The notes under the pieces were generated by a model, which worked only from the letters and a program-made list of their open reading frames with translations, ran no database searches and was not told the DNA's origin. From contig CM026547.1 in NCBI GenBank assembly GCA_014905635.1, forward strand, positions 744,001 through 808,000: a stretch of 64,000 nt of DNA, given 5' to 3'. The position numbers and the translations under genes are program-made. Shown here one piece after another: positions 2,875 through 8,104 of the stretch; positions within the stretch are counted from its first letter, which is position 1, and the number at the start of each line of letters is the position of its first letter. Origin of the DNA: Scenedesmus sp. PABB004 (lineage: Eukaryota).

Positions 2875-3684
2875 TCACACGCCGAGCGCCGCCTCCAGCG
2901 CGGCGCGCTCGCGCGCCCCGAGGTGCGGCGCCGCGGCCTCGAACCAGCCCGGGTCGGCCGCGGCGAGCTGCGCCAGCCCCGCGCGCACGAGCGCGCGCAT
3001 CGGCGTGCGCAGCAGCGGGTCGTTGGCGTCGGCGGGGTCGTCCGGCAGCGGTGTCGCGGCGGCGCTGCGGTCCATGACGTCGGCGAGGTCCAGCCCGCCC
3101 TCGCCGCCGAGCTCCGGCGGCACGCTGCGCGAGTTCCGGGCGGCCGCGGCGCGGGCGGCTCAGCCGTTCGTCGCCGTCCGCCCCCGCTTGGGCGGCAGCA
3201 CGCGCCGCGCTCGCGCACCCCATGGCCTTGAGCCGCGCGCCGACGGGGCTCGAAAAGTCGGGCGCGCAGGCGCCGCCGCCGTCGTCGTCGTCGTCGCTGC
3301 CGCTCTCGTCGCCCCAGTCGCCCTCCTCCTCCTCGCCGCCGCCGCCGCCGCGGCCGCCCTCGGCGTCAGCCGCGAGCAGCTGCCCCAGCACCTGCAGCAC
3401 CTTGGCGGGCGCGGGGACCTGGGTGTAGTGCAGGCCGCCCTGCTGCCGCGCGCGCGCGCGCGTCACGCGGCCGCCCCCGCCGCCGCCGGCCTCCTCGACG
3501 GGCTGTCCCTGGCACAGCAGCCCCACGAGCGCGGGGTGGTGCCGCGCCTGCAGCAGCTGCAGCAGCGCGGCCGCGCTCCGGCGCGTGAGCAGGCTGCCGG
3601 TCATGTCTGGCGCGTGCTCCAGCCACAGCGGCACCACGACCGCGAGGCCGCTCGCGGCGGAGCCGCCTGCGGCGGCGGCGACAC

Positions 3685-3717
<33 letters not shown>

Positions 3718-6700
3718 TCAACGTGCGAGCACGGCGGCCGCAGCCGGTGCTGTGCCGCCGCGCGCCAAAGAAGCCAGCGGCGGCGGCGCACCCGGCGACG
3801 CGAGCTGCATGCCCGCCAGCAGCTCCAGCAGGCGCGCGGAGTCGAGCAGCGCGAGGCACACGACAAACTCCAGCAGGCTCGCAACGGTCGCGGCGCTGCA
3901 GCCGCCGCCCGCGAGCTTGGCGGCGAGGGCGTGCAGCAGCAGGCCCACGCAGCTGCCCGCGGCGGGGCCCGCGGCCGCGCCGGCGCCCGCCGCCAGCGCC
4001 GGCGGCGGCGGCGCCGCGAGCTCGGAAGGGAATGTCTTGAGCAGCTGCGCCAGCAGCGGCCCCGCGCAGCGGCTGCAGCTGTCCGGCTGCGCCGGCGCGA
4101 CCAGCTGCAGCGCCGCGCCGAGCAGGCGCGCCAGCGGCCCGCCGCCCTCGCCCGGCGCGTCGGCAGCGCACGCCGCCAGCAGCTCCGGCGTGGGGCAGCA
4201 GCGCAGCAGCTGCAGCAGCAGCTGGACGGCGCTGTTGAGCTCCGACGGGTCGTCCGAGGCTGAAAGCAGCGCCAGCACGGGGCCCAGCACGCCGCGGCAC
4301 AGCTGCGGGCGGGCGCGGGGCGGGCGCGCATCGACGAGCCCCCGTCGGCGAGCCAGCCCCGCACACACGAGCGCGCGCCCGGCAGCAGACGGTCCGCGGC
4401 CCGCCAGCCGCCGCCCGGCGCACCTCGGCCGCGACCGCGGGCTGCCCTGGGTCAACGAGCGTGCCCAGCAGGTCCAGGCTCGCCTCCACGAGCATCGGCC
4501 CCTCCTCGCCCGCGCCCTGCGCGGCTGGCGGCGGCGCGGCGGCGCGCGCCGCGCCGCGTGCCGCCGCGCCGCGCGCAAGGATGCCTGCGAGTGTCGGCGC
4601 CGCCGCCGCGGCGAGGCCGGGCAGGCACGCGGGGTGGGCGGCGATGGCGGCAATGACCGCCTGCGCGTCCGGGGCGATCAGCGGGTCCGCCGTGTGCGCG
4701 ACCCAGACCTGTGGGCGCGGTGCGCGGGTGGCGGCGGCCGTGTCAGTGCAGGAGCGAGCCCAAGGAAGGCGCGGCGGCGCGCGTGCGCGTGCGCGCGCCG
4801 CACCTGCAGCACGGGCTGCGCCACCGCGAGCGCCTGCTCCGGCGCGAGGCCCGGCGCGCCGCGCGCGCCCGCCGCGTCAATGACTGCCGCGAGAACCTCC
4901 AGCACGAGGTGCAGGCTCTCCTCCTCCGCCGCGCCCAGCAGGCGCACGAGCGCCGGCAGCAGCTGCGGCAGCAGCGCCGCGAGGCCCGCCGCCGGCGCCG
5001 CAGGGCAGAGGCAGGCCAGGGCGCGGAACGCGCCGATGCTGACCGTGGCCGAGCTGCCCGCGACGACTGGCGCGGGCGCCGCGGCGCGGCGGAGGGCGGC
5101 GCAGCGTGAGGCGGGGGAAACCGGGAGGCGGGGGCGCCCGCGTGCGAGGGCGCCGGCGCCGGCGGCGCGCGCGGCGCCCACCCGCGGCCGCGGCCGCCTG
5201 CAGCAGCGCCTCGCGCTGCGCCGGCGTGGCGACCTCCTGCAGCCGCGCGCCGACGCAGAGCGCGCGGCCGGCCAGGAGCTGCTGCCCGTCGTCGCCCAGC
5301 TGCGGCGGCGGCACGGGCTGCTGCTGCGCCTGCAGCGCCGCGCCCGTCGCCGCGAGCGGCGCGAGGTCGCGCTGCAGCAGCGCGTCGACCGCCTGCTGCA
5401 GCTGCGCCGCCGGCAGCGCGCCCGACGCCACGGCCTGCAGCCGCCGCGGCAGCGGCGGCGTTGGCGCGCCGCCGTGCCGGCAGCCACGGCAGCAGCAAGC
5501 CCACCCGCCCGCGCGCCCGTGCCCGTGCAGCGCAGACCCACCTGCACGAGCTGGTCGCTGCAGGCGCCCAGGGCCATGATCGCCGCCTCGCGCATCGCCC
5601 ACCAGCTGGCCTGGCCCGCCGCCGCCGCGGCGTCCGCCTCGGCCAGGCGGCGCGACACGGCCTCAAGCAGCAGGACGAGCGCGGCGACACCAAACGTGTC
5701 AGCCAGCTCCACGAGCACCAGCTCCGCGGACGCCCTGCGCAGGGCGCGGCCGCGGCGCGGTCAGCGGTCCGCGCGGGGGGCATGCCTGGGCGAGCCGCCT
5801 GCCCCCCTCCCTTGCTCTGCGGCGCCGGCTGCGTGAGCAGCTGGGCGGCCGCCGCGCGGCAGCGCTCGCCTGCATGACACGATGTCCTCCTCCTCGTCAG
5901 CCACAAACTGGTTGACGCTCGCCGCCCACGCGTGCGCCTGGTCCTGCGCGCCGGCGGGCACGCGCACCGCCTTCGTCGCACGCGGGCGCGCGCGCCGCGC
6001 GGGGGCGCTGGCCTGCCCTGCCTGCGAGAGACGCGCACGCGCTGCACGGCGCACCTCTGTCATCTGGAGGTATGGGATCGCCACGTACACCAGCTGCGGC
6101 AGCGCCGCGCCCAGCTGCTGCCGGAAGCGCGGCGGGCCGACGAGGCTGAGCAGCAGCTCAAACAGCTGCGGCGGCGGGCGCGGGCGGCGCGGCGCGGGCG
6201 CCGTCAGCACGGCGCCGGGGGCGCGCGCCACGACCCACACAGCACGCACAGCACACACAGCACACGGCGACGGTCGGCGGCGGGCGTGTCAGAGCAAGGA
6301 TGACTATTTGGCTGCCAATTCTCATCAGCCAGCGGCCGGGGCCGCTGCGATTGCACGGTAGGGCGTTGTTCGCCCTCAGTCGCGGTGTGAGACTCATCAG
6401 CCACGCCCGCCCCGCGACGCAACGCAACGAACGCAGCACGACACGCCGCCACGCGCCGCCGCCGCGCAGCGCGCGGCGAGCGCTGCTGCGCCCGCCCGCG
6501 CCCGGCCGCACCTGCGCCAGCAGCGACTCGAGACCCACGCCCTCGTCGCCGTCCGCGCCGTCCGCGGCGTCGTGCCCGTCCTCGCCGCTGCCCTCCACCA
6601 GCACCGCCTGGTGCAGCGGCTGCAGCGGCGGGGGGAGCGGGTCAGCACCCGGGCCTCGCCGCGAGCGCGCACGCGGCCCCGCGCCCGCGCCCCCGGTCCC

Positions 6701-8104
6701 GCGGACCTGCGCCGCGAGCAGCAGCTGCCACGTCGCGCCCATGAGCGCCGGGACGCTGCCCTCCAGGGGCTTGCTGAAGTAGGTGACCAGCGGCTGCGCG
6801 AGCCGCAGCGCCGCGTGCTTCGCCGGCCAGCCGGCGCGGTCCTGCGCGCGCGGGGTGGCGCGGTGAGCGGCGGGCGGTGCACGCGCCCGGCGCGGCGGCG
6901 CAGCGCGCCGTTGCGCGCGGCGCGCGTGCCTGCATGTCGGCGCCCAGCACGCCGCACACGAGCGGGACCCAAGGGGACATGAGGGGGACGAGCATGTTCC
7001 GCACCTGCGAGGCGGGGCGGCGGCGACACGAGCGGGCGTGTGGCGCGGCGCGCTGCATGTCGGCGGCGCGGCGCGGCGCGTGCGAGCTGCCCGCGTGCAG
7101 TGTTGCCCCCGCTGCCGCGGCGCGCGCCTGGCGCTGGTAGGTCCCCGAGAGCGAGGCGAGCGCGCCGGCGAGCTCGGCCATGATCGCGAAGCAGGTCGCC
7201 GCGAGCCCCGGCGGCGTGTGCGGGGCCGACACGACCGCCGCGAGCTCCGGCGACAGCGCCTGCACGAGCGCGGGCGCCTGGTCGTTGTCGAGGTCGGACG
7301 CCATCACGCCGAGGCAGCGCAGGCAGCCCATGACTGCGGCGGCGCGGGGCGCGCGGCGCGTGGGCGCGGGGCGCGGAGCGCGCCGGCGGCCGCCTGCTGC
7401 CGCTGCGGCTGGGCCGGCGCGCCGGCTGCGCACGCAGGTTGGTGTCCTTGCGCTCCTTGATGGCCCCCACAATGAACTCCAGAAGCCCCGGCCACGCCTG
7501 GCAGCGGCGCGGCGGCGGCGCGGCGGCGGTCGGCGGCCGGCGGCGCGGCGGCTGCTAGCTGCCAGGGCCGGCCCGCGTCGGCGGCGGCGGCGTTGCGCGC
7601 GCCGCAGGCGCGCCTGGGGCCAGTCCCACGCCGCGACCGCGGCGATGGCCATGCCGACGGCGGTGCGTATCTTGGAGTCGGGGTCGGCCAGCCCCGCCGG
7701 CAGCGCCGCGCGGATGGCGGCCTTGTCCGCCTCGCTGACCTCCGGCGGCACGAAGCCGCGCTCGCCCTCGACCCAGTGCTGCGAGAGAGGGGCGCCGGCG
7801 GCGGCGCGGGGCGGTGGCGGCGTGGGCCGGCAGCGGCGGCGCGCGGGCCGGCGGCGCGGGCGGCGGCGGTGGCGGCGCCGCGCACCTGCTTCACGTACTG
7901 CTTGAGCAGCACCGCCGCCGCCTGGCGGTCGGGCGGGGGCAGCTCCGCGGCGTGCGCGATCTGCGCGAGCGCCACGCCAAAGCCCGGCGCGGCGCCCTCG
8001 CGCGCGAGCGCCGCCTCCGCCGCCCGGATCGCCTCCGGGTCCTGCGCCGCCGCCAGCAGCCGCACCGCCGCCAGCACGCGCTGGGGCTGCGGCGGCTCCG
8101 CCAT
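2875..8104 (-). CDS. IPO9: Importin-9 (karyopherin beta family), multi-exon
   Basis: IBN_N region DRQAAAVLLKQYVKQ|HW...DKAAIRAALPAGLADPDSKIRTAVGMAIAAVAAWDWPQ; W..SVNQFVADEEED..SCR; WWAMREAAIMALG; acidic loop near the C-terminus; ends AALEAALGV*. Confidence 0.88.
6282..6408 (-). ncRNA. Intronic box C/D snoRNA, predicted guide for 2'-O-methylation of U6 snRNA
   Basis: In an unusually long importin-9 intron, same strand: terminal stem GGGCGUG/CACGCCC, box C UGAUGA (6399-6394), D' CUGA (6379-6376), C' UGAUGA (6327-6322), D CUGA (6292-6289); GUCAUCCUUGC before box D is complementary to U6 GCAAGGAUGAC. Confidence 0.85.

Follow-up and report, generated by a model that had tools for sequence, protein, structure and literature searches.

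Intron 7 of the importin-9 gene in the window (the whole 64-kb stretch of DNA that was analysed) contains a real box C/D snoRNA element that very probably functions as a guide for 2′-O-methylation of U6 at the equivalent of human A70; we infer both its expression and the modification from sequence. In the model we propose, a single-copy, intron-encoded RNA would be cut from the spliced importin-9 intron, trimmed to its terminal stem and bound by Snu13, Nop56/58 and fibrillarin, all steps borrowed from general box C/D biology. The guide would then open the internal stem-loop of U6 by invading its 3′ strand, and fibrillarin would methylate the paired adenosine, A63 of the organism's own U6. The C′/D′ half would act as a structural scaffold, its insert forming two hairpins and its guide slot going unused. 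The genome encodes fibrillarin. The RNA is of a familiar type, a box C/D guide for U6, and brings no new mechanism. The mark itself, Am70, sits in the catalytic stem-loop of U6 and, together with Cm62 and Cm63, raised the methylation of G72 by THUMPD2 more than 10-fold in vitro (PMC13109388).

The snoRNA unit and its host intron

The host gene (Table 1) was identified by its first two exons. Exon 1 matches the Pfam domain IBN_N (E 4.6e-6), and importin-9 was the only sequence match of exon 2 in the PDB (E 3.4e-10). Four of the 15 predicted introns have GC donors in place of GT (at 7613, 7127, 6929 and 5869, minus strand). Intron 7, which the original prediction put at about three times the usual length, is indeed 346 nt long. 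The remaining 14 predicted introns span 87–135 nt, and their median, 109 nt, is smaller by a factor of 3.2. The end of box D lies 123 nt from the 3′ splice site of intron 7.

Table 1. Positions in the window of the snoRNA unit, its parts and its host
Feature	Position	Strand	Remarks
Box C/D snoRNA unit including terminal stem	6279..6411	-	133 nt
Terminal stem, 5′ arm	6402..6411	-	10 bp
Terminal stem, 3′ arm	6279..6288	-	
Box C, UGAUGA	6394..6399	-	preceding base is C, not a purine (consensus RUGAUGA)
Spacer before D′, 14 nt	6380..6393	-	without credible target, not conserved; read as unused guide slot
Box D′, CUGA	6376..6379	-	
Insert hairpin 1	6361..6375	-	5 bp, 5-nt loop; immediately 3′ of D′
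Insert hairpin 2	6330..6347	-	7 bp, 4-nt loop; just upstream of C′
Box C′, UGAUGA	6322..6327	-	
Small hairpin between C′ and guide	6308..6318	-	4 bp, 3-nt loop; not conserved
D guide GUCAUCCUUGC, 11 nt	6294..6304	-	fully complementary to own U6 nt 60-70; D+5 = A63
Box D, CUGA	6289..6292	-	
Importin-9 host gene	2875..8104	-	hand-built, DNA-only model; 16 exons, 1119 codons, no internal stop
Intron 7, snoRNA host	6166..6511	-	GT-AG, phase 0, 346 nt

A box C/D snoRNA with boxes C, D′, C′ and D had been predicted in this intron, and all of its parts are present. The unit reads on the minus strand (6411–6279), which had not been stated. Its terminal stem, described earlier as 7 bp long, consists of 10 Watson–Crick pairs (6411–6402 with 6288–6279) and ends 2 nt before UGAUGA and 0 nt after CUGA. 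This is the geometry of a kink-turn, whose parts, the 10-bp stem, a 3-nt bulge and the C/D pairing, can all be recognized in the sequence. The mature RNA is probably a few nucleotides shorter than the 133-nt unit at either end. Boxes D′ and C′ are separated by two hairpins instead of one stem. Both had been anticipated, the first with its 5 bp and 5-nt loop; the second was misdrawn, having 7 bp and a 4-nt loop, not 8 bp and a 2-nt loop. A third, small hairpin, between C′ and the guide, has to be added to the original description. A single U separates the guide GUCAUCCUUGC from box D.

The guide followed by any one base and CUGA occurs once in the window and in none of 100 shuffled sequences. 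Neither a DNA search of the genome nor relaxed guide patterns revealed a paralogue; four other genomic matches to one relaxed pattern had no boxes, and the one other match to a second was the start of an exon. The Rfam search of the element that had been suggested as a check returned no family: there were no gathering-score matches in the window to Rfam 15 covariance models, SNORD23 and snoR26 among them if Rfam models these, and positions 6100–6600 gave only four weak non-snoRNA matches (E 2.6–5.3). A hammerhead match (15.2 bits against a cut-off of 37) was rejected as weak. One contig of DNA reads over 6237–6393 differs from the window at four letters, two of which are listed, one turning a terminal-stem G–C into G–U and the other at a hairpin edge; with a depth of 2, it is too thin to count as evidence.

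The probable U6 target

A complete U6 gene and a partial copy were found in the genome, each with the complement of the guide; the predicted target stretch is thus part of the organism's own U6. The plant-type U6 and organelle-like contigs suggest that the organism is a green alga. The complementarity had been described as 11 nt, with the D+5 rule selecting the equivalent of human A70, and both statements hold. The D guide pairs best with U6 60–70, forming 11 of 11 possible Watson–Crick pairs with A63 at position D+5, and the next best site scores 8.5. This search covered U6, U1, U2, U4, U5, the rDNA and 42 tRNA predictions, the latter from 38 loci and accounting for 17 of 18 nuclear matches (63 of 216 candidates scored; only 13 nuclear anticodons recovered). 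The pairing criterion was at least 9–10 consecutive pairs next to D or D′, with the fifth base selected; a 9-bp criterion has been used before (PMC8053127). Shuffled guides reached the same score in 2 of 3000 cases on U6 and in 6 of 3000 on the five snRNAs, and once the rRNAs were added 10 of 150 did so. In a large target set an 11-bp match is by itself no rarity and therefore needs the support of relatives. In a rough, naked-RNA model the duplex is worth −20.8 kcal/mol, against ∼3.3 to open U6 60–70.

With an offset of 7, human A47, A53, G54, C60–C63, U64, A70, G72 and C77 all fall on identical bases of the organism's own U6, and with an offset of 2 so do all eight Arabidopsis sites. Since both offsets hold, A63 corresponds to human A70 and to Arabidopsis A65. 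It probably also corresponds to Schizosaccharomyces pombe A64, judging from the 6-nt offset of S. pombe A41 to human A47. The adenosine is methylated in human U6 (PMC13109388, PMC8599867, PMC7960923), in Arabidopsis (PMC8053127) and in S. pombe, where the mark is lost upon deletion of sno530 (PMC10484740).

In the region that holds both U6 copies (G000:C77:372889-376120; L001:1501-1601, L002:1507-1552, L119), the full gene, the only one in the assembly, has no run of four T for ∼1.9 kb downstream, whereas all six nuclear tRNA genes examined have a T run within ∼15 nt. Because such a terminator is missing, the functional U6 gene may be an unusual one or may be absent from the assembly. The second copy, 3.1 kb downstream, contains the 3′ part of U6 only (44 nt at 98%) and ends a 1.1-kb inverted duplicate (77%) of Cys-rich, ORF-like DNA that lies behind the first copy. 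The U6 3′ end may be unusual, or U6 may be linked to a mobile element. On another contig (G000:C46), U1, U2 and U4 are each present as an oppositely oriented pair (L074-L075, L106-L110); U5 adjoins one of the U4 copies, and a CAAACCA-like 3′ trailer is common to U1, U2, U4 and U5. The matches to nuclear SSU (3.3 kb; L068, G000:C54) and LSU (4.2 kb; L071, G000:C17) rRNA far exceed the lengths of the models, which suggests several insertions, for example group I introns.

Three further box C/D RNAs share one intron elsewhere in the genome (L127:1185-1691; G000:C7, ∼388630-389135), whose host gene we take to resemble FGAM synthase. They comprise a snoZ223-like RNA (30 bits, below the cut-off), SNORD24 (46 bits) and, at 1420-1515, an unannotated RNA with a guide at its D box for U6 A40, the equivalent of human A47. 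The preceding intron seems to contain another U24-like element. The A47-type mark thus seems to be served in this genome by a separate snoRNA in another intron. A pattern for an A53-type U6 guide had no matches. LARP7-dependent U6 guides (SNORD7, 8, 9, 10, 67 and 94) carry a CAGGG-type motif. The RNA in the window has no CAGGG, only GAGGG after D′; CAGGG occurs in three of the relatives described below (L027, L036 and L061). Three La-motif genes were found in the genome, and a search for the xRRM returned nothing either from the genome or from its own controls.

Relatives and alternative readings

Metagenomes were scanned with a pattern made up of C′, the exact guide and D, which misses variants with G–U pairs. 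Because the guide was part of the pattern, its identity among relatives is by construction. The scan yielded 49 loci, most of them coding-like chance matches; a scan of a viral collection gave two matches, both coding-like. Three of the 49 lay too close to a contig end for an upstream box C to be sought. Upstream of five of the other 46 (L027, L036, L041, L060 and L061) there is one more UGAUGA, and a stem of 6 bp or longer is placed as in the window, with the identical offsets of 2 nt and 0 nt. The number of complete units expected from shuffled sequences (400 each) was 0.0. L036 and L061, which have a host gene in common, were counted as a single lineage. L064, with an imperfect box C and a 4-bp stem, is a weaker sixth candidate, and the unit at L022 is cut by the contig end. 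None of these seven units had an Rfam match. A model built from seven units scored its training set at 50–72 bits and everything else at 26 or less, a separation that is circular.

L027, from an alga-like genome, is the only one of the 49 loci to match the host protein (tblastn, four exons, E 1.7e-14 to 0.004). The unit at this locus occupies the same phase-0 importin-9 intron, 393 nt long in L027, between exons that align with those of the window, so that the conservation suggested earlier as a check was found. The coincidence of hosts does not depend on the search pattern, and the shared intron is the independent evidence. L027 also has the two-hairpin layout between D′ and C′, in unrelated sequence; the longest word common to the two introns is the guide, again by construction. 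Outside the boxes and the guide the relatives have no clear sequence in common, and we would call common descent firm for L027 only. The guide seems to move between host genes: in L036 and L061 it lies in a coiled-coil gene, in L041 in AT-rich DNA and in L060 in a gene with a weak match to PSME4 (E 1.5). Pfam gave nothing significant for the hosts of relatives other than L027. The context of L064 is presumably the last intron of a gene resembling the end of a DEAD-box helicase; a search gave no match there.

These comparisons bear on whether the motif in this long intron could be accidental or decayed, yielding no functional RNA in this species. UGAUGA-N25-55-CUGA pairs are common (608 in the genome), and boxes alone carry little weight. 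Box C lacks its purine, and boxes C and C′ are buried when the minimum-energy fold is computed without constraints; both points count against a guide. GC-rich DNA also folds easily, the fold of the insert being matched by 11 of 200 shuffles for the RNA in the window (2 of 200 for L027). However, the element combines all four boxes with a 10-bp stem and a perfect guide, each of them intact. No other C…D pair in the 64-kb window has a kink-turn stem that reaches 6 bp, the host intron is the only oversized one among 15, and the corresponding intron of L027 houses the same unit. A chance origin is therefore highly improbable. It is also very unlikely that the RNA pairs with U6 without simple D+5 methylation of A63, acting instead as a chaperone of the stem-loop in U4/U6 assembly or directing modification of one or more neighbouring bases. 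There are precedents for such behaviour: human SNORD23–U6 chimeras were first read as aimed at the unmethylated U64 (PMC5389715), in the plant snoR26 the same stretch, shifted by two bases in register, is used for C63 (PMC8053127), and guides of multiple specificity exist in yeast and Arabidopsis (PMC8053127). These exceptions use D′ boxes (PMC11863803, PMC8053127), whereas in the window only 1 nt separates the guide from a canonical box D. Ot-CDsno55 of Ostreococcus tauri, which was found without that constraint, has an equal spacing, and the selected base is methylated in three distant lineages.

Compatible with methylation of A63, and in our view unlikely, is a dual role in which the 14-nt D′ element also directs methylation of a target outside the set searched, such as an intron-containing or missed tRNA, 5S, U3, 7SL, MRP, a minor snRNA or an mRNA. 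The original prediction took the element at D′ for an orphan second guide, and the element's length is that of a guide, boxes D′ and C′ are perfect consensus, and both slots appear to be used in Ot-CDsno55. The target set was also incomplete, with many nuclear tRNAs missing along with 5S, U3, 7SL, MRP and the minor snRNAs, and a search for a tRNA-Pro-type motif gave no match. Within that set (U1, U2, U4, U5, U6, SSU, LSU, 5.8S and spacers, and the 42 tRNA predictions) the element has no site above chance: its best, 9 bp with one G–U in LSU, was equalled by 73 of 150 shuffles on the rRNAs and five snRNAs. On U6 it would add no pairing beyond 7 bp with two G–U. Exact complements of 12 nt occur at six other places in the genome, none resembling a structured RNA gene, and a control pattern gave 9 matches against 7. 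A bulged pairing with tRNA-Ala was rejected, as it fails on the organism's own sequences. Nor is the slot conserved, being 8 nt and unrelated in L027 and different again in L036, L061 and L060. It is best read as an unused guide slot, and we retain a single guide, directed at A63, as the preferred reading.

Comparison with known U6 guides

The guide for Am70 is proven in S. pombe, where it is an atypical RNA, tentative in mammals and not assigned in Arabidopsis. Among open-access papers, we found none that names an algal guide for the equivalent position. The novelty of the element, described originally as an unannotated algal U6 guide, was somewhat overstated, given sno530, Snord23 and Ot-CDsno55. 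The S. pombe RNA sno530 guides 2′-O-methylation of U6 A64, the equivalent adenosine of the stem-loop. It has a non-canonical architecture with an imperfect C box, pairs over 12 nt with one non-Watson–Crick pair and depends on Bmc1–Pof8–Thc1 (PMC10484740). The RNA in the window, in contrast, is canonical and forms a perfect duplex, a comparison made with the published description of sno530.

In mammals, neither the table of a 2021 review (PMC7960923) nor a 2023 preprint (bioRxiv 10.1101/2023.06.22.546166) gives a guide for human U6 Am70, which both list. Snord23 was proposed in 2025 as the mouse guide, from a chimera peak below the significance cut-off (PMC11863803). SNORD23/Snord23 uses the D′ register, whereas the RNA in the window uses D. 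Arabidopsis Am65 has been mapped and is likewise listed without a guide (PMC8053127, Table 3). Land-plant snoR26 has an element antisense, fully or partly, to the same stretch of U6 (PMC8053127, PMC5122169); its position differs, at D′ and with two more bases between it and the box, and its assigned target is C63 (PMC8053127), which is C61 in the organism studied here. An 8-mer core of the guide occurs at least 18 times in the sequence file of PMC5122169, in snoR26 and in one H/ACA RNA, and among the matches listed from that file none is in a CrCD entry. Two further likenesses in the same file were noted by eye: the D element of grass Z109 is similar to the guide but shifted by one base, and in Chlamydomonas CrCD05 the D′ element could pair, with one mismatch, with the 5′ side of the U6 stem-loop in the region of human C62 (PMC5122169).

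Ot-CDsno55 is, on our comparison, the closest known RNA. It was detected by RNA-seq as an uncapped RNA of 130 nt with 225–374 raw reads per library, is called O. tauri-specific and is given U6.A45 (A47-type, via D′) as its only target (PMC7671301). It resembles the RNA in the window in being box C/D, green-algal and ∼130 nt long, and in the long insert that separates D′ from C′. By eye, 10 of the 11 bases of its D guide are those of the window, the exception being a C-to-U change that gives a G–U pair at position 6; one U and then box D follow, and when set against Ot-U6 the element selects the same adenosine. Ot-CDsno55 thus appears to carry a second guide, not listed among its targets, for the A70 equivalent. 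It provides RNA evidence, already published, for this type of guide and hints at a dual A47/A70 form. The two RNAs differ in that Ot-CDsno55 is a dual guide within a cluster, whereas the RNA in the window lies alone in its importin-9 intron, with no A47 guide at D′ and no AGGG motif after C′. A GAUC(G)AGGGAA motif after C′ is common to Ot-CDsno55, L036 and L061.

The snoRNA points to an uncatalogued family of canonical guides for U6 Am70, for which it and its relatives can serve as seeds of the missing family model. A plain algal D-box guide with an expressed, published relative also offers a clean setting for testing the role of the mark in splicing. Only tentatively, we suggest that the family is old, occurring across green algae and possibly in further eukaryotes (L041, L064), and that it derives from a dual A47/A70 guide like Ot-CDsno55. 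This would have split into two RNAs in some algae and moved between introns, leaving an empty D′ slot, and snoR26 may be a re-registered relative that explains Arabidopsis Am65.
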